A DNA stretch of 15,593 nucleotides, from the UHGV virus genome UHGV-0078853; one strand, written 5' to 3'. This DNA comes from a virus. Shown one piece after another: positions 656 to 15,568 of this stretch (position 1 is its first letter; each line of letters starts with the position of its first letter). The notes under the pieces were generated by a model. That model was not told the DNA's origin, ran no database searches, and worked only from the letters and a program-made list of their open reading frames with translations. The translations under genes were made by a program, and so were the position numbers.

Positions 656-919
656 CTATTCCAGAATATTCCTCACGTAATCCTGCAACATGAACACTTT
701 AAGTCTCAGTTGCCGTACACATTCTGCGTTCTGGACGTCAATAGCTAAATCCTCGTCCGCGTCGTTACTTGGCAGTGCCAGTTTGCACGGCGGCTGCATC
801 ATCGTCGTATCCGGGGATGGAATTGGCGTTTGCGACGGCGCGGGACTTGAGCTGCACGCGCTCAGGGTCAAAAGTGCACACGCTGCGGCCAGGCGTTTTA
901 ATGTACTTAACGACTTCAC
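656..919 (-). CDS. o-spanin (Rz1-like outer-membrane lipoprotein), overlapped with i-spanin
   Basis: GTG start at 919-917 with AGAGGT Shine-Dalgarno. Signal peptide ends in lipobox LSAC, followed by a Pro/Ser-rich mature region (CSSSPAPSQTPIPSPDTT). It begins inside the upstream gene in another frame and extends 109 nt past its stop. Confidence 0.6.
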   Translation of the reverse strand: MKSLSTLKRLAAACALLTLSACSSSPAPSQTPIPSPDTTMMQPPCKLALPSNDADEDLAIDVQNAECVRQLRLKVFMLQDYVRNILE

Positions 920-9403: not shown

Positions 9404-9410
9404 GATGAAT

Positions 9411-9446
9411 CCTCCAGGTGCGTATTAAGTACGCAGTAACTGGAGG
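9411..9446 (-). promoter_or_regulatory. interrupted hairpin sequestering the holin Shine-Dalgarno
   Basis: CCTCCAG (9411-9417) pairs with CTGGAGG (9440-9446), with an inner 6-bp stem 9419-9424/9430-9435. On the minus-strand mRNA the holin GGAGG lies in the 3' arm. Confidence 0.45.
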
Positions 9447-9478
9447 ATACCACGGGTAGGAATTATCTTAATAACGGT

Positions 9479-9772
9479 TTATTTATGCCGCCGGATGTAT
9501 TGTCGTCTCTGTGGTTTCGTCGGAATATCATCGTATCCCTGCGATTTCCAGTAATTAAATAACCGATTAGCGATAGCGGCGCGTTCTTGTGTTTTGAACT
9601 CACCGAGATTAACAGCCTTCCCGTTCTGGAATCCACAGGCGCGGATAGCTTTGCGTCTGGTCTGAATCTCCGGGTACAGCGCATTACGGCGGCGCTTGTA
9701 TATCTGTGTTTTAGCTCTCGGCGACAGCGGCGCAAGGCCGCTTCGTTTCAGGATGTCAGTTGCCAGGCTCAT
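9479..9772 (-). CDS. small basic DNA-binding protein, possible AP2-like domain
   Basis: Segment RKAIRACGFQNGKAVNLGEFKTQERAAIANRLFNYW resembles the AP2/ERF-type core (LG-F-T-EE-AA-A) seen in phage AP2 proteins; ATG 9772 overlaps the upstream stop as ATGA. Confidence 0.4.
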   Translation of the reverse strand: MSLATDILKRSGLAPLSPRAKTQIYKRRRNALYPEIQTRRKAIRACGFQNGKAVNLGEFKTQERAAIANRLFNYWKSQGYDDIPTKPQRRQYIRRHK

Positions 9773-9948
9773 AGGTCCAGAATCTCGCGCGCCAATTCAT
9801 CCGTCTTCCAGTCGCACGGACTGTTTACTACCTGCTTAGCAAGCTCACGCAGTTTACGTTCAAGCTCCGCGTAGTCTTCGTATAGGACCCAGCGCCCTTC
9901 CGCGCCCTGAAACATATCGCCGTGGTCGTTTTCGTATCTCTGCACCAT
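9769..9948 (-). CDS. hypothetical small protein, tandem paralog 2 (59 aa)
   Basis: Start ATG 9948 with a GGAG-type Shine-Dalgarno. N-terminus MVQRYENDHGDMFQGAEGRWVLYEDYAELERKL parallels the upstream gene. Confidence 0.5.
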   Translation of the reverse strand: MVQRYENDHGDMFQGAEGRWVLYEDYAELERKLRELAKQVVNSPCDWKTDELAREILDL

Positions 9949-10130
9949 CACTCCACCCCTTCCACATGTGTAACTGACCCACAGTTCGCGCACTCGATGT
10001 AATCCGGGAACTGGTCTTTGTATTTCTGTAACTCAGCTTCGAGTTTCGCGTAATCTTCGTAAAGCACTAACACGCCCTCAACATCAGGAGTAAACCCGAA
10101 TATCTGGTCGTAGGTATATCTCTGTACCAT
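9948..10130 (-). CDS. hypothetical small protein, tandem paralog 1 (60 aa)
   Basis: Start ATG 10130 with an AGGAGA Shine-Dalgarno 7 nt upstream. N-terminus MVQRYTYDQIFGFTPDVEGVLVLYEDYAKLEAEL; C-terminus has a CANCG motif. Confidence 0.5.
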   Translation of the reverse strand: MVQRYTYDQIFGFTPDVEGVLVLYEDYAKLEAELQKYKDQFPDYIECANCGSVTHVEGVE

Positions 10131-10132
10131 AA

Positions 10133-10336
10133 TCACTTCTCCTGATTGCCAAGTCGCTTAGGTGAGCAGATAGCGCGTACCTCCGAATCGTTGGGTTTGT
10201 CACCCTGAAACAGAAAGTGCGCGTTCTCTGCGGCGCGTGCCGCTGACTGGCACGCCTCCATCGAATAAAACGTTTCCGATGCCGCTAGTTGCATCTGGCC
10301 CGCCGACAGTACCCAGATAAATAAGATGCTGGTCAT
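10133..10336 (-). CDS. small membrane or secreted peptide (67 aa)
   Basis: ATG 10336 overlaps the upstream stop (TGATG). Hydrophobic N-terminus MTSILFIWVLSAGQMQLAAS followed by a short soluble region with two Cys. Confidence 0.4.
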   Translation of the reverse strand: MTSILFIWVLSAGQMQLAASETFYSMEACQSAARAAENAHFLFQGDKPNDSEVRAICSPKRLGNQEK

Positions 10337-10881
10337 CAGAAGTATTCCCCGCACGTTTTACATACTTTCGTACCGAACGGCGCGGAGCCACCTGTTATTA
10401 CATAATAGAAACTGTGTTTGCACTCCTGTGTACAGGCTGTTGCCCCATACTCAAGTCCGTCCCACTCACGCTTGCCGCATTCGCAGCAAAACCGGCTACC
10501 GGGCACGTTGTCCTTGTGGCCTTCGGCAATAAACAATCCTGGAGTGATAATCCAATTGTGGTCACATTCCTGCGTATCTTCTTTTCGGCAACCAGATTGC
10601 TCCGAACCGTACGCACCTTTGCGGATAAGTTTGTATGCCTCCACGTCACCAGTAGCCTCGACCAATGCCAGATGCAACTCCTTAACTTGCCCTGTCAGGT
10701 GCGATATGTGCTCAGATTTCTTAATGTTGTCTTCCCGCAACTCCTTAATCTGCGCCGACGCATCACGTAACTGATTCTTAAGTGACTGCACCTCATGCGC
10801 CAGGTCTTCGCTCCGGCTGTTATTTACCTGCTGCCGTAGCTGGTAGATCAGGTACTCGAATATTTCGTTTTTGTTACTCAT
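10336..10881 (-). CDS. coiled-coil protein with C-terminal Cys/His-rich (zinc-binding-like) domain (181 aa)
   Basis: Start ATG 10881 (MSNKNEIF...) with an AAGGGG Shine-Dalgarno. N-terminal half is heptad-like and charged; C-terminal half has CDHNW, CCECG, CTQECKH and CKTCG clusters. Confidence 0.6.
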   Translation of the reverse strand: MSNKNEIFEYLIYQLRQQVNNSRSEDLAHEVQSLKNQLRDASAQIKELREDNIKKSEHISHLTGQVKELHLALVEATGDVEAYKLIRKGAYGSEQSGCRKEDTQECDHNWIITPGLFIAEGHKDNVPGSRFCCECGKREWDGLEYGATACTQECKHSFYYVITGGSAPFGTKVCKTCGEYF

Positions 10882-11011
10882 CAGCTTCACCCCTTTTCTC
10901 ATCCACCCCGACTAGCAGCGATTTAGTGTCGCCGTCACACACCGAAGTGCTACTAATTATTTCGTAAGCGTCTACCAGTTCGCCTAAAGTCCAGCTACCG
11001 TACCGGCCCAT
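10874..11011 (-). CDS. hypothetical micro-protein (45 aa)
   Basis: ATG 11011 preceded by an AGGAG Shine-Dalgarno; its stop overlaps the start of the downstream gene; hand-translated. Confidence 0.3.
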   Translation of the reverse strand: MGRYGSWTLGELVDAYEIISSTSVCDGDTKSLLVGVDEKRGEADE

Positions 11012-11041
11012 CTCTGTCTCTCCTCTCGCTTGTGTAAATGA

Positions 11042-11070
11042 ATAGTAGCCTATTCTATCTTAGTGTGCAA
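11042..11070 (-). promoter_or_regulatory. internal promoter, TTGCAC-N17-TACTAT family (minus strand)
   Basis: Minus-strand -35 TTGCAC at 11070-11065 and -10 TACTAT at 11047-11042; same hexamers, spacing and flanking AATAGGnTACTATTCA as the promoter at 12335-12363. Confidence 0.45.
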
Positions 11071-11076
11071 GTAAAT

Positions 11077-11250
11077 TTATTGGTGTGTTATGGAGTCGAT
11101 GAATGCCAGTAACTCCCTTTCCGCTTCTGCCTCTCTTTCTTCAAGCGACCAGGTAGCGGATTCCTCTGTCGCCGTTGCTAAATCGGTTTTCGCATCAACC
11201 ATCGTGTCGATTAACGTGATTAGTCGTTCAGCCTGTTCTTTAGTAATCAT
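11077..11250 (-). CDS. hypothetical small acidic protein (57 aa)
   Basis: ATG 11250 with an AGGAGA Shine-Dalgarno 7 nt upstream; below the track size cut-off. Confidence 0.4.
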   Translation of the reverse strand: MITKEQAERLITLIDTMVDAKTDLATATEESATWSLEEREAEAERELLAFIDSITHQ

Positions 11251-11384
11251 TGTTGCATCTCCTGCAATAGTCGCTTCGATTGTTGCGTTTGATGAAAGTG
11301 TCGCCTTTTGACGACACTAAGTTAAAGTTGTACGCTGCTGTGTGGCAGCGTAAGTCACTCAGTAAAATCCCAAACTATTGAACA

Positions 11385-11585
11385 TCACACTTCTGGCGGC
11401 TCGGGTAACGGCATCCAGTGCGTCACGTACTTATCGTAGTGATTCCAGAAAGGCTTTCTCCCGTCATCAGGAACTATGTAATAATCGTGCTGAACTGCGT
11501 TATTTAACGTTTCATACACCAGGAACTCTTTATCCGTATACCCATTACCCGGCAGCATCTCACTACACTTAATCCACTCACCCAT
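11385..11585 (-). CDS. DUF551-like phage protein (66 aa)
   Basis: N-terminal WIKCSEMLPG and C-terminal VTHWMPLPEPP match the DUF551 pattern common in phage early regions; ATG 11585 with an AGAGGTG Shine-Dalgarno. Confidence 0.65.
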   Translation of the reverse strand: MGEWIKCSEMLPGNGYTDKEFLVYETLNNAVQHDYYIVPDDGRKPFWNHYDKYVTHWMPLPEPPEV

Positions 11586-11733
11586 ACCTCACACCTCTTT
11601 CAATCAAGGATTGCACACCAGCTTTCCACGCCCGCCACGCGAGACGCGTCTTAACGTTCAGGTACTCTTTCTTTGAACCCTTGTTAACCGGCAGACCCTC
11701 GACCACAGCCCACCGTTCAAATGCTTCTCTCAT
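11578..11733 (-). CDS. hypothetical small protein (51 aa)
   Basis: ATG 11733 overlaps the upstream stop (ATGA); translation MREAFERWAVVEGLPVNKGSKKEYLNVKTRLAWRAWKAG...; stop overlaps the next start. Confidence 0.4.
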   Translation of the reverse strand: MREAFERWAVVEGLPVNKGSKKEYLNVKTRLAWRAWKAGVQSLIERGVRYG

Positions 11734-11908
11734 ACCAGAACCTCACATTCATCCAGATACACGAACAATAACGACCCTTTGTACTCAATCATAAAACCAT
11801 AATGGTTGATGCTGAACGCCGGAAAAACATCACCTACCGAGATACCGAAATCTATAAGCCTGCGGTCAGTTATACGGACAAGCCTGCGGTCAGTTATACG
11901 GATTCGCA
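11730..11908 (-). CDS. hypothetical protein with internal 8-aa tandem duplication (59 aa)
   Basis: Likely start ATG 11908 (GGGAGG upstream); N-terminus MRIRITDRRLVRITDRRLIDFG encoded by a 24-bp tandem repeat. Confidence 0.5.
11857..11904. repeat. 24-bp tandem direct repeat, 2 copies (22/24 identical)
   Basis: agcctgcggtcagttatacggaca followed immediately by agcctgcggtcagttatacggatt; in-frame within the CDS 11730-11908. Confidence 0.9.
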
Positions 11909-12109
11909 TTAACGGCAACCTCCCTCAGAGTCGTCGGCACAAGCATCACGATTCGATGCCGTTTTGATTGCCTGTAAGCTATTTAGCATTTGCTGGCTAT
12001 CCATCGTAATAATTGTAATCCCGTCTGATAAATGCACCTCGTAGCGTTCAGCTACGAAATATATTTCCTCGAAATCATGATGTTTCAGTTCTTCAAATAA
12101 TTCTTCCAT
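11909..12109 (-). CDS. hypothetical acidic protein (66 aa)
   Basis: ATG 12109 with an AAGGGG Shine-Dalgarno; overlaps the upstream stop (TGATG). Confidence 0.5.
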   Translation of the reverse strand: MEELFEELKHHDFEEIYFVAERYEVHLSDGITIITMDSQQMLNSLQAIKTASNRDACADDSEGGCR

Positions 12110-12300
12110 CACTTCGCCCCTTTAAATTTAAAATTGTTGCCGATGAGTTTTAAGTTCTCCTCTTCTACGTATATTTGTGAATTTACCCCTCTCACCTTTT
12201 GCACGGTCACTACGTACTCACCGGGAAATAAATTAGATTTTAATTCAATTATGCCGTGTTCACCGTCGGCGCATTTAACCAACTGACCATTCTTAAACAT
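12109..12300 (-). CDS. hypothetical protein (63 aa), first gene of the leftward early operon
   Basis: ATG 12300 (or GTG 12309) with a GGAG Shine-Dalgarno; translation MFKNGQLVKCADGEHGIIELKSN... Confidence 0.5.
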   Translation of the reverse strand: MFKNGQLVKCADGEHGIIELKSNLFPGEYVVTVQKVRGVNSQIYVEEENLKLIGNNFKFKGAK

Positions 12301-12334
12301 AACCCTCACTCCTCTGTCTCGTTCCGATAAGTGA

Positions 12335-12363
12335 ATAGTATCCTATTATGTTGGGGCGTGCAA
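12335..12363 (-). promoter_or_regulatory. promoter proximal to the early-left operon, TTGCAC-N17-TACTAT (minus strand)
   Basis: Minus-strand -35 TTGCAC at 12363-12358 and -10 TACTAT at 12340-12335; dyad AATAG-N4-CTATT overlaps the -10. Confidence 0.5.
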
Positions 12364-12422
12364 GAGATTAGTTACGTTGCCGTTGTGATTCTTTCGTTTC
12401 TTAAAGGAGTACGCAACGCAGT

Positions 12423-12442
12423 GGGTGGGCGTTAGCCCACCC
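12423..12442. promoter_or_regulatory. stable GC hairpin GGGTGGGC-gtta-GCCCACCC in the early-left leader
   Basis: 8-bp perfect stem with no adjacent U-tract on either strand; lies between element B and the proximal promoter. Confidence 0.45.
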
Positions 12443-12483
12443 CAGCGGAGTGAAGTACTCTCTACCTCACTCACTCACGGCAA

Positions 12484-12680
12484 CTATAGAAACTTTTAAT
12501 TATCAGTGACTTGGGTATTTAGGCGGGATTAACAATAGACTTTGGCCCTTCCGAAAGCGCCAGCGGAACTACACTCAAGTGCCTAATGGCACGCGTTGCG
12601 TTCCCTGCCGCTCCGCGGTCGCTTGCGATATCTCACAAGCTCAGTGAAGCTTAGCATATTTTTAAGTAAAAGTCAATACT
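12484..12680 (-). repeat. copy B of the conserved promoter-leader element
   Basis: See 1216-1408; same blocks in the same order and orientation. Confidence 0.8.
12648..12676 (-). promoter_or_regulatory. putative promoter inside element B (TTGACT-N17-TAAGCT, minus strand)
   Basis: Minus-strand -35 at 12676-12671 and -10 at 12653-12648; identical architecture to the copy-A promoter. Confidence 0.4.
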
Positions 12681-12723: not shown

Positions 12724-12752
12724 TTGCTTTTACAAAGTTACCGCCTTATACT
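12724..12752 (+). promoter_or_regulatory. putative rightward promoter for the replication operon (TTGCTT-N17-TATACT)
   Basis: -35 at 12724-12729 and -10 at 12747-12752; AGGAGA Shine-Dalgarno and ATG 12782 lie downstream. Confidence 0.45.
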
Positions 12753-13296: not shown

Positions 13297-14238
13297 ATGT
13301 CCGATGTAATTTTATCCTACTCGTGGTCGCGTCGCAACGCGCGGGCTGAGAAAAAGGATATAAACGTCAGAACCACACACACGGCAACACTGGACGACCT
13401 GAAAGAGTTAATCCAGCCACTCGATGCTGTCCGTGACGGAATTAACCCGAAGACCGCGCCCGGTTATATCACCGCCGCGTGCGACTCGACGCACAGCACT
13501 GTAAAAGACCCGGAAACCGGCGACTTTAAGCAAGCGCGTAAAGGCTTTTTCTATCGCTGTGACGCGTCTGTAAGCAAATCGTCGCTGGCGTATCTGGACT
13601 TCGACAGCGCAACACCAGAAGAGTATCAGGAAGCGGTGCGCTTAGTTAAACGCAGCCGCCGGGGCATGTGTATCTATACCACGGCATCACATACCGACGA
13701 GTCCCCGCGCTTTCGCGTCGTCATGCCGCTGGCCCGTCCGGTTGAAGGTGGTGACATTATCCGTGTTCGTCACGGCTTGCTCGAGCACTTCTTCAAAGGC
13801 ATGGGTGCTGACCGCAGCGGGTTCACTCTGTCACAGCCGATGTATCTGCCGCCGGTTGGCGCTACTGTTATCTGGTCGCGTCGCAACGACCTGATTGACC
13901 CGGACGAGTTACTGGAAGGCATCCCCGCCGTTGACGTTAGCAGCGCATCGGATTACCAGATACCGAAAGAACTGCGAACAGCGTTTACCGATGCGTTTGA
14001 AGCACTGGCGTTCGAGTACGGCGGTATTATGACCCCGCGCGGCCTTAAGATGCCCGCTACGCCGGAACACGCCGAGAACTACAGCGACCCGACACCGCGC
14101 CCGGATGACTTCCTGCTGTGCTTCCCGCGCGAGGGATATGAAGCGCCTAACGTAACCATGATTCACGACACCGACATTACGGCGACCGAGGGCATGTCAC
14201 CGAAAGAGGTGTGGAAGTATGCGGCTGCCGTTCAGTGA
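13297..14238 (+). CDS. replication protein, possible primase or primase-polymerase (313 aa)
   Basis: GAGGGA Shine-Dalgarno; contains LAYLDFDS (DxD-like) and YTTASHTDE (S-H) motifs reminiscent of AEP-type primases, and sits directly upstream of a RecA-fold ATPase. Family assignment is tentative. Confidence 0.4.
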   Translation: MSDVILSYSWSRRNARAEKKDINVRTTHTATLDDLKELIQPLDAVRDGINPKTAPGYITAACDSTHSTVKDPETGDFKQARKGFFYRCDASVSKSSLAYLDFDSATPEEYQEAVRLVKRSRRGMCIYTTASHTDESPRFRVVMPLARPVEGGDIIRVRHGLLEHFFKGMGADRSGFTLSQPMYLPPVGATVIWSRRNDLIDPDELLEGIPAVDVSSASDYQIPKELRTAFTDAFEALAFEYGGIMTPRGLKMPATPEHAENYSDPTPRPDDFLLCFPREGYEAPNVTMIHDTDITATEGMSPKEVWKYAAAVQ

Positions 14239-15568
14239 AGTCGCAGAGGCCATCGGTTGGGGTGCACGTGAATCTGTTTCTTGCAGCCTGGACGACCTTG
14301 AAGACGACGAGGACTCAGAGGAGGACGAGTTACCGGAACCGGTAAAGGCTGATTTCGTCGTTGAAGGGTACATGCCGTCGGATTGCATATGGGATATCGT
14401 CGGGGAGTCCGGTACGTATAAATCCTTCTATACGCTGGGGATGATGTACCTGAGCGCCACCGGATACCGGTTTGCGGGTGCTGACACCCAGCGTTGCCAC
14501 CATTTCTATATCGACGGTGAAGGCGGCGCAGCTACCCGCACCCGTATCGATGCGCTCGCGGCTAAATATGGCGAGGAAGGTAAAGATTATGTACATGTTA
14601 TAGACATGGGTGAAATACTCGGTATGCGAGAGGATAAAAAACTTACAGCACTCATCCGTATGATGCGTGAAACAGCAGGAGAGGAACCGATCGGTATGAT
14701 TGCGTTCGATACCCTCAACCAGACGCTGGCCCTGACGATTGATAAGTTTGATGAGAACAGTTCATCAACTGCAATCGGCATGGGTAAAGTCATCGCTATC
14801 CTTAAAAAAGCGCGTGACGCGACTAAAGCTGCGGTAGGCGTTGTACACCATACACCGAAGGGCGGAAAGAAAGCCCGAGGTAGTGGTGCGCTGTACGCTG
14901 GCGTCGATGTGGAGCTGACAATCGAACGCGCGACAGACCGTCAGATAAATGTATACCACTCTAAATTTAAGCATGGGCCGCAACAGAAGACGGTTGGTAT
15001 GGTGCTTGAGTCGGTACAGTTCCGCGAAGCCCCGCCACCGAAAGAATACCGCGCGGTTGAGTTCCTCGGTAGCACAGAGGAATACGGCACAACCGTTAAC
15101 CTCGACCTGCCTGAGCCGCACAAAGCGCTTGTGCTTATGCCGTGGGGCTTCGAACCGTTCAAGACCGACGAGGAGAAAGAGCGGGAAGAAGGACTGACTA
15201 AGGAAGGTAAAGAAAACGTACGTAGAACCATGGAGAACGCCGTCAACAGTTCGGAAGCCACGATACTGGCGGCGTTTGAACTGGCGGAAGGAACCTACAA
15301 CGGCAACGAAGGTATCACGGTAGCCGCGGCAAATAAGCTCGCACAGTCTGACCCCAACGCGAAGGCGTTCAACTCCAAAGAAGTCATAGAACGCGGAAAG
15401 ATTAAGAAAATGGTTGAGGCGGGGTATCTTGTACCTGGTACGGACGAAAACAATCAGATAATCCCGGGCCGTTACAGATTGAATACCCGAATAACGGACA
15501 ACAAGATTCCGAAGACAATATACGAACCGAATGAAATGCTGACAGTGACAGAGGAGGATTTGGAATAG
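14219..15568 (+). CDS. RecA-fold replicative ATPase/helicase, AAA_25/DnaB-like (449 aa)
   Basis: P-loop-like GESGTYKS, acidic linker DDLEDDEDSEEDE, Walker B-like MIAFDTL and the VGVVHHTPKGG motif typical of this helicase family; ATG 14219 with an AAGAGGTG Shine-Dalgarno. Confidence 0.7.
   Translation: MRLPFSEVAEAIGWGARESVSCSLDDLEDDEDSEEDELPEPVKADFVVEGYMPSDCIWDIVGESGTYKSFYTLGMMYLSATGYRFAGADTQRCHHFYIDGEGGAATRTRIDALAAKYGEEGKDYVHVIDMGEILGMREDKKLTALIRMMRETAGEEPIGMIAFDTLNQTLALTIDKFDENSSSTAIGMGKVIAILKKARDATKAAVGVVHHTPKGGKKARGSGALYAGVDVELTIERATDRQINVYHSKFKHGPQQKTVGMVLESVQFREAPPPKEYRAVEFLGSTEEYGTTVNLDLPEPHKALVLMPWGFEPFKTDEEKEREEGLTKEGKENVRRTMENAVNSSEATILAAFELAEGTYNGNEGITVAAANKLAQSDPNAKAFNSKEVIERGKIKKMVEAGYLVPGTDENNQIIPGRYRLNTRITDNKIPKTIYEPNEMLTVTEEDLE

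Follow-up and report, generated by a model that had tools for sequence, protein, structure and literature searches.

The array discussed here is a run of small, closely packed genes on the minus strand of a 15,593-nucleotide (nt) stretch of viral DNA, genome UHGV-0078853; the whole stretch is referred to as the window. By megablast, the array region belongs to Kagunavirus (Guernseyvirinae; K1G- and K1ind-like virulent Escherichia coli siphoviruses) and matches 115 Escherichia or Kagunavirus records, the best being vB_EcoS_fTaEco03 with 96.5% identity over 92% of the region. Among the five complete Kagunavirus genomes compared, the large terminase subunit (TerL) is 100% and the portal protein 81-100% identical, and megablast identity of the region to related records is 83-97% where aligned. 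The array combines genes that are found in every relative with genes that come and go between them, and it probably represents an operon organised by promoter cassettes, in which the phage's own programme and interchangeable cargo are interleaved.

Genes and organisation of the array

Twelve genes, g1 to g12, lie between positions 12300 and 9479. They are listed with their lengths in amino acids (aa), the isoelectric point (pI) where it stands out, and their occurrence in relatives, including 14 Kagunavirus arrays.

12109-12300 (-): g1, 63 aa, basic; in all 14 arrays but divergent (39-97% identity); phrog_12538, function unknown
11909-12109 (-): g2, 66 aa, acidic; variable, in 38 phage records at 36-100% identity
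11730-11909 (-): g3, 59 aa; variable; FeoA-like according to the fTaEco03 record
11578-11733 (-): g4, 51 aa, basic, pI 10.4; in all Kagunavirus arrays (87-100%), absent from Jerseyvirus
11385-11585 (-): g5, 66 aa, stand-alone DUF551 protein; variable, 27-100% identity or absent
11077-11250 (-): g6, 57 aa, acidic, DUF7438; accessory
10874-11011 (-): g7, 45 aa, acidic; accessory, fills the variable slot after the internal promoter cassette P2
10336-10881 (-): g8, 181 aa; conserved N-terminus, long coiled coil and two CxH...CxxC zinc-ribbon-like modules
10133-10336 (-): g9, 67 aa; hydrophobic N-terminus (ILFIWVLSAGQMQLAA followed by S) and two invariant cysteines
9948-10136 (-): g10, 62 aa, acidic; tandem paralogue of g11; accessory
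9769-9948 (-): g11, 59 aa, acidic; paralogue of g10; accessory
9479-9772 (-): g12, 97 aa, pI 11.2; invariant N-terminal MSLATDILK, disordered basic linker and an AP2/ERF-type core at about residues 41-80

Neighbouring genes overlap by 1, 4 or 8 nt at nine of the eleven junctions, leaving gaps only between g5 and g6 (134 nt) and between g6 and g7 (65 nt), and a purine-rich ribosome-binding site is present at nearly all starts. The open reading frames (ORFs) are conserved in more than 100 related phage records and in PHROG families, with matches at E 5e-12 or better for ten of the twelve (the exceptions are g2, E 2e-4, and g7, E 1e-5), all of them labelled 'unknown function'. Judged by these sequence features, the array ORFs are real genes. 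Most products are small and acidic, with net charges of -10 for g2, -9 for g6, -8 for g10 and -6 each for g5, g7 and g11; the promoter-proximal half of the array has a GC content of 0.41-0.47 and is AT-richer than the rest of the window (0.50-0.58).

An initial annotation of the window had described about 14 genes of 45-181 aa between 9479 and 12300, almost all of them translationally coupled. The size range and the limits are exact and the overlapping junctions bear out the coupling; the gene number comes down to twelve, the extra ORFs being alternative-frame overlaps. The same annotation had seen no product resembling replication, structural or lysis proteins, and Pfam and PHROG profile searches likewise found no such resemblance among the twelve. 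It had singled out a DUF551-like protein as the sole exception. This holds for g5, which passes PF04448 (E 6.3e-12, 46.6 bits against a cut-off of 22, profile positions 1-68 of 68) and consists of what is regarded as a portable domain of unknown function (PMC10834534), but it does not stand alone: g6 passes PF24219 (DUF7438; E 4.3e-13, 49.9 bits against a cut-off of 25, profile positions 1-57 of 57), and g12 appears to be AP2-type, as set out below. g6 occurs in 33 phage records, all of them Escherichia, Shigella or Kagunavirus, and g2 in 38, compared with the 115 records that match the region; literature searches on DUF7438 returned nothing useful.

A conserved scaffold with exchangeable genes

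All proteins of the window were compared by tblastn with 15 Guernseyvirinae loci, including those of Salmonella Jerseyviruses, and the ORFs of the 14 Kagunavirus arrays were sorted into families. Five genes, g1, g4, g8, g9 and g12, are present in 14 of 14 arrays, and of these g8, g9 and g12 are the ones still found in Jerseyvirus. The other seven (g2, g3, g5, g6, g7, g10 and g11) are patchy, that is, missing, replaced or strongly divergent in many relatives; g10, for instance, is absent from four of the tblastn loci (K1G, K1ind3, UTI89UKE1 and K1H) and only partial in fTaEco03 and K1B4, and the g10/g11 tandem paralogues are missing from several close relatives. The census of the 14 arrays comprises about 31 ORF families, of which about 15 are seen once. 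The conserved pairs g1-g4, g4-g8 and g9-g12 stand zero to six genes apart, and what lies between them differs among the arrays. In their bounding pairs and differing gene content, the variable slots agree with the published definition of accessory regions (bioRxiv 10.1101/2023.04.06.535777), which also requires the genomes to be closely related at nucleotide level. The ratio of non-synonymous to synonymous substitution rates (dN/dS) is 0.05-0.27 for g9, g12 and g4.

One of the variable genes, g3, contains a perfect 23-nt direct repeat with 24-nt spacing (11856-11902), through which eight residues are doubled in frame (RITDRRLV/RITDRRLI); the PHROG profile of the g3 family (51 aa) does not have the extra repeat copy.

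The genes shared with Jerseyvirus

g12 is conserved across the Guernseyvirinae, with 91-97% identity in Kagunavirus and 36-37% in Jerseyvirus, and its dN/dS within the genus is 0.08-0.15. Longer homologues from Jerseyvirus and from metagenomes display a recognisable AP2 pattern (PGVSW...RAY...INLGEF.TAERA), and four long-form homologues give weak Pfam AP2 matches (best E 0.027). The long form P0039 matches P0214 (E 4.8e-14), which in turn scores 57 bits, above the Pfam AP2 cut-off; an exhaustive phmmer search with a long-form homologue reaches multi-repeat proteins that pass this cut-off as well as HNH_3 endonucleases. The AlphaFold2 (AF2) model of g12 contains two strands, forming a beta-hairpin, and a helix at residues 43-77, with a predicted local distance difference test score (pLDDT) of 78-88; the first AP2 beta-strand is present only in the long-form homologues, not in g12. 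Foldseek against PDB ranks AtERF1 at the top (E = 1.1) with other AP2 domains in the top 30, none of them significant, and against BFVD it retrieves mostly AP2/ERF proteins and AP2-bearing HNH phage proteins, with probabilities of 0.96-1.0 and root-mean-square deviations of 1.4-2.2 Å over about 41 columns. When PDB was searched by sequence, both g12 and its profile returned noise only. We read g12, from the model and from its homologues, as a truncated AP2-type protein with putative DNA binding, and probably as a regulator that acts on transcription or at the DNA level.

The most conserved gene of the region is g9, with 90-99% identity in all 15 loci including the Salmonella Jerseyviruses; in the latter the endolysin is 73-77% and the holins are 22-38% identical. 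Its dN/dS is 0.06-0.10. The N-terminal hydrophobic stretch ends in LAA followed by S/T, and g9 is a probable small exported or membrane-anchored protein on the basis of these features. The alignment of homologues places the start at MTSILF; an upstream GTG start, which would give 73 aa, was rejected since the extension is not conserved. The possibility that the DNA is conserved as a cis-element was likewise rejected, as the substitutions are overwhelmingly synonymous. The synonymous rate of g9 is below that of the endolysin gene, which could reflect a more recent exchange.

g8 occurs in every array but is hypervariable (23-97% identity). At 90% identity its homologues fall into 1316 clusters (listed lengths 106-258 aa), compared with 49 for g9 and 43 for g12 in the same collection, and their alignment reveals heptad-block insertions and deletions in the coiled coil and one to four shuffled 'ECxHxW...CxxCG' modules. 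No sequence similarity to Ead/Ea22 was detectable with Pfam. Structure prediction, which the initial annotation had suggested together with Foldseek for the array products, was applied to two proteins: for g12 it points to the AP2/ERF type, and for g8 the AF2 model has low confidence scores (pLDDT 58.5, predicted template modelling score 0.27, helix at residues 3-77) and too poor for a fold search, so that the C-terminal modules are described from the alignment.

Promoter cassettes, leader and hairpins

The non-coding features in and around the array are the following.

12332-12363 (-): P1, cassette TTGCAC-N17-TACTATTCA before g1, found by repeat/pattern search; with its 5′-untranslated region (5′-UTR) and ribosome-binding site it would serve g1-g5
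11039-11070 (-): P2, internal cassette TTGCAC-N17-TACTATTCA before g7, found in the same way; the gene downstream occupies a variable slot
12364-12647 (-): structured non-coding leader of about 285 nt, from the divergent promoters to P1, identified by RNA folding
12648-12676 (-): candidate distal leftward sigma-70 promoter, TTGACT-N17-TAAGCT with TG upstream of the -10 element, read from the sequence and under the threshold of the scanner
12724-12752 (+): candidate rightward promoter, TTGCTT-N17-TATACT, back to back with the distal leftward one
11291-11317 (-): terminator-like hairpin in the g5-g6 gap, GUGUCGUC-aaaa-GGCGACAC followed by UUUCAUC, of putative function
9405-9453 (-): strong stem-loop between g12 and the holin gene, at the 3′ boundary of the array (free energy -25 kcal/mol, z = -3.85)

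P1 and P2 lie inside a 48-nt repeat, and the two exact matches compare with 0.33 expected by chance. The motif TTGCAC-N17-TACTAT is letter-perfect at both positions in 13 of 13 Kagunavirus loci, along with the downstream 5′-UTR and Shine-Dalgarno sequence, and the stretch that begins about 35 nt before the -35 element of P1 and runs to the ATG of g1 is nearly invariant. The first gene after P2, on the other hand, differs in seven ways: it is g7, a gene starting MFNSK, MVTLI, MKDYR, MYSEL or MKAVT, or g8 directly. Complete Kagunavirus genomes contain exactly one further copy, three in total, which falls outside the window and precedes an opposite-strand operon within the tail genes that encodes an Imm-like protein, a metallophosphoesterase, a polynucleotide kinase/phosphatase and a dNMP kinase. 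In the loci compared, this third cassette is found at:

14753-14781 (-) in L002
14504-14532 (-) in L004
16338-16366 (-) in L005
12651-12679 (-) in L006
13029-13057 (-) in L007

Conservation of this kind among related phages is a good argument for P1 and P2 being functional promoters, and the internal promoters proposed by the initial annotation therefore hold. The sequence does not bear out its proposal that the array is simply transcribed first from the divergent control region: the array has promoters of its own, and P1 lies about 300 nt from the divergent ones, behind a structured leader. A generic scan for sigma-70 promoters and terminators called none on the coding strand within the array, and its promoter-like sites were fewer than in shuffled sequences; searches of the window for Rfam families and tRNAs had no hits.

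The leader folds at -102.7 kcal/mol (z = -4.09), and none of 200 shuffles is as stable. Its sequence is mosaic across 14 phages; each type has a GC hairpin (12423-12444 in the window, about 60 nt upstream of P1) bracketed by conserved TTGCCGT and ACGGCAA arms. The candidate promoter at 12648-12676 is kept only in phages with the same leader type, and the other type (Bas71, ORH001, K1B4) has its own sigma-70-like TTGAAA-N18-TATAAT at about the equivalent place. The octamer ACGGCAAC occurs six times in the window against 0.7 expected, at 709-716 (-), 11912-11919 (+), 12376-12383 (-), 12477-12484 (+), 13381-13388 (+) and 15300-15307 (+). An RNA element is one possibility for the inverted pair of the leader and this octamer; another is that they are bound by a DNA-binding protein of the phage, for example g12 or the helix-turn-helix (HTH) protein of the opposite arm.

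At the 3′ boundary, the 3′ arm of the stem-loop includes the holin Shine-Dalgarno sequence, GGAGG, just before the TTG start, and thereby sequesters it. Phage Shelanagig has an annotated terminator at the corresponding position, and possible roles for the structure are those of a terminator, an attenuator or a translational brake on holin synthesis. Phage Snoke has a terminator annotated in the middle of its array, though this array lacks g5 and g6.

In relatives, the array strand continues from the small-gene array through two holins, the endolysin and a second small-gene array to the small and large terminase and the head and tail genes; where annotated, the second array includes NinH- and NinZ-like genes. 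Genes for the HTH protein, a primase-helicase, a nuclease and DNA polymerase run in the opposite direction, and the starting point is an intergenic region of about 460 nt. No RNA polymerase gene is annotated in complete Kagunavirus relatives, and the phage must for this reason use the host polymerase. The conserved sigma-70-like cassettes are compatible with early transcription by this enzyme, and early timing of the array is plausible but unproven. A literature search yielded no useful Jerseyvirus transcriptome.

A probable operon with a phage programme and interchangeable cargo

The account that we favour, and consider probable, is a composite one. The array would be the leftward operon of non-structural genes in a lytic Kagunavirus dependent on host RNA polymerase, organised by two cassettes of promoter, 5′-UTR and ribosome-binding site, P1 before g1-g5 and P2 before g7-g12, and closed by the stem-loop before the holin gene. 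Its scaffold, kept by purifying selection, would belong to the phage's own programme, with g12 as a regulator, g9 as an exported or membrane mini-protein and g8 as a coiled-coil protein with zinc-ribbon-like modules, in addition to g4 and g1. The cargo genes g2, g3, g5, g6, g7, g10 and g11 would be gained, lost and replaced between close relatives, in slots bounded by conserved genes and cassettes. This cargo would be dispensable for the basic lytic cycle, and it is the sole part of the array for which there is a reasonable prior, and so far only a prior, for a role in host takeover, anti-defence or competition with other phages.

Several observations weigh against parts of this account. g12 itself has no Pfam match and does not pass the gathering score of AP2 (PF00847); its assignment is drawn from a 40-residue core and transitive homology, with Foldseek E-values against PDB above 1. 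The hexamers of P1 and P2 match the sigma-70 consensus at only 7 of 12 positions and were missed by the generic scanner, and the cassettes could depend on a phage factor. RNA sequencing (RNA-seq) of phage K1B4 (vB_Eco_K1B4) classes 4 of 57 genes as early and 42 of 57 as middle, and in its text only the HTH gene of the opposite arm is named as early (PMC12645636); given these classes, the array may be middle rather than early. Finally, the division into core and cargo was drawn from 14 arrays with a crude ORF caller, which in five phages put an alternative-frame ORF in the place of g9.

The initial annotation had offered the array as a candidate host-takeover or anti-defence island. In its strong form, this would mean that most of the twelve products block immunity or host functions right after DNA entry, like T7 class I or T5 pre-early genes. 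Small, mostly acidic and tightly packed genes adjoining the divergent control region, the highly variable gene content and the AT-richness of the P1-proximal half are all in keeping with such an island, g8 is as variable as expected of an arms-race protein, and accessory regions of enterobacteriophages are enriched for counter-defence genes (bioRxiv 10.1101/2023.04.06.535777). However, none of the twelve products resembles an anti-defence family in the general libraries Pfam, PHROGs and NCBIfam, and PADLOC and NCBIfam returned only coiled-coil noise for the array products. The Kagunaviruses of the BASEL collection, Bas70-76, are reported to be highly sensitive to restriction-modification (RM) systems and variably so to Old (PMC11990801), and Bas71 shares g4, g7, g9 and g12 at 87-96% and g8, g10 and g11 at 56-71% identity; by analogy, this RM sensitivity argues indirectly against broad anti-restriction. 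Moreover, five of the twelve genes are a conserved scaffold rather than arms-race cargo, among them g9, g12 and g4 as a near-invariant core under strong purifying selection. An ordinary regulatory or DNA-related family emerged for one product, g12, with its AP2-type DNA-binding family, and a uniform anti-defence reading is wrong for at least this gene and probably for g9 and g4. What stands of the island is the accessory-region behaviour of seven of the twelve genes, and we consider a dedicated island distinctly unlikely.

The array could also be the 5′ part of a lysis and late unit rather than early, with g8, g9 and g12 controlling lysis timing or late expression. It shares its strand with the holin, endolysin and packaging genes and lies directly upstream of them; the probable exported or membrane protein g9 is three genes upstream of the holins, the putative DNA-binding protein g12 adjoins the lysis cassette, these two and g8 persist in Jerseyvirus, the boundary stem-loop sequesters the holin ribosome-binding site, and the large middle class of K1B4, as far as reported, fits as well. 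Such a unit is at odds with the third copy of the cassette, which precedes the nucleotide-kinase and polynucleotide-kinase operon, functions that are usually needed ahead of late genes. It is also difficult to reconcile with the strong hairpin between g12 and the holin gene, with two better sigma-70-like promoters after the endolysin gene and before the second small-gene array, and with variable cargo genes that have no obvious link to lysis; on balance, it seems unlikely. It is extremely improbable that several of the small ORFs are non-functional, either chance ORFs or decaying remnants in a recombination hotspot, as might be suggested by the ORF families of relatives that occur in only one of 14 arrays and by the weak PHROG matches of g2 and g7. 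All twelve recur intact in several phages at 40-100% identity, nearly all have the purine-rich ribosome-binding site and a start overlapping the preceding stop, the other ten match PHROG families strongly, and dN/dS is far below 1 where measurable.

The operon of programme genes and cargo is the account that we retain. A more far-reaching version of it would see the cassettes as portable junctions for swapping early cargo in the Guernseyvirinae, a siphovirus counterpart of the promoter early stem-loop (PeSL) elements of T4-type phages, and g8 together with at least one of g2, g6, g7, g10 and g11 as new immunity inhibitors or decoys; this we regard as unlikely. Overall, the array is a plausible place to seek anti-defence genes, and no surprising biology has been demonstrated in it.

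Genomic surroundings

Mosaicism extends to the replication arm. The helicase part (14219-15568) is only 33% identical to fTaEco03, UTI89UKE1 and fTaEco01, the best matches for the array, and instead 95-96% identical to K1G, K1ind3 and K1H; the HTH protein has the opposite pattern, with 88-89% identity to the former three and 61-62% to the latter. K1G and K1H encode the primase-helicase in one gene of about 755 aa, whereas the window has two overlapping ORFs of 313 and 449 aa (13297-15568, plus strand). The break, at about 14219-14238, results from a 14-nt deletion at about 14222, and a further difference is an in-frame insertion of 18 nt at about 14617. Possible explanations are a genuine split gene, a pseudogene and an assembly error.

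The two best sigma-70 matches of the region, TTGACA-17-GATACT and TTGACT-17-TATATT (10 of 12 positions each), lie in the segment 8073-8223 (-), past the endolysin gene and ahead of the second small-gene array, together with a G-rich stretch that leads into a T8 run. The second array, downstream of this segment, includes the NinH-like gene and leads into the terminase genes. In several relatives, Jerseyviruses included, g12 and the holin are separated by a gene of about 145 aa that is annotated as an HslV-like/N-terminal nucleophile (NTN)-hydrolase 'protease'; the window does not have it. Its positions in the relatives are:

3057-3494 in L009
2565-3002 in L014
2562-3002 in L015
3046-3480 in L012
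3260-3694 in L013

Kagunaviruses are common, small and engineerable E. coli phages that are in use as therapy and reporter chassis. For engineering, the fixed genes g1, g4, g8, g9 and g12 can now be told apart from cargo that is predicted to be dispensable, and the cassettes and slots offer themselves as natural sites for the insertion of payloads. Functional screens for anti-defence or takeover activity are narrowed to the seven cargo genes and g8, and g12 and g9 are flagged as candidate regulators of the phage programme.

Comparison with known systems

The ordered core of g12 superposes on the stand-alone AP2/ERF proteins and on the AP2-HNH homing endonucleases of phages. Unlike these, g12 has neither the first beta-strand nor a nuclease domain, and it has an invariant N-terminal peptide of its own.

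The class I genes of T7 and the pre-early genes of T5 are small genes next to the first promoters that are read by host RNA polymerase, and the array is similar in this respect. It differs in having no homologues of ocr, gp0.4, gp0.7, gp2, A1 or A2, and in that its relatives are restriction-sensitive.

With the ea/b2 and nin regions of lambdoid phages, including lambda Ea22 and a DUF551-bearing Ea22 variant (PMC10834534), the array has in common that small non-essential genes are grouped with a DUF551 protein. The layout of lambda Ea22, a conserved N-terminus, a coiled coil and a mosaic C-terminus, is repeated in g8, and NinH- and NinZ-like genes are found in the neighbouring second array of relatives. 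Here, by contrast, the phage is virulent and g8 has no detectable similarity to Ead/Ea22, and little is known about what the lambdoid genes themselves do.

The hyperplastic regions of T4-type phages and their PeSL elements (PMC2839356, PMC4122927) resemble the array in that a conserved promoter cassette, here in three copies, is repeated at the border of slots with differing downstream genes. The array phage is, however, a siphovirus with a different motif and only three copies of it. Its leader stem-loop is about 60 nt upstream of P1, none adjoins P2, and the terminator-like hairpin before g6 is not next to P2 either. Cassette-mediated recombination at the array is putative.

The accessory regions described by Silas et al. 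(bioRxiv 10.1101/2023.04.06.535777) differ from the array in two ways: no counter-defence function has been demonstrated in the array or deduced from homology, and its slots are interleaved with strictly conserved genes rather than forming one uniform island. What the two have in common is the arrangement itself, in which variable sets of small, uncharacterised genes with fast turnover are held between conserved, closely spaced pairs.

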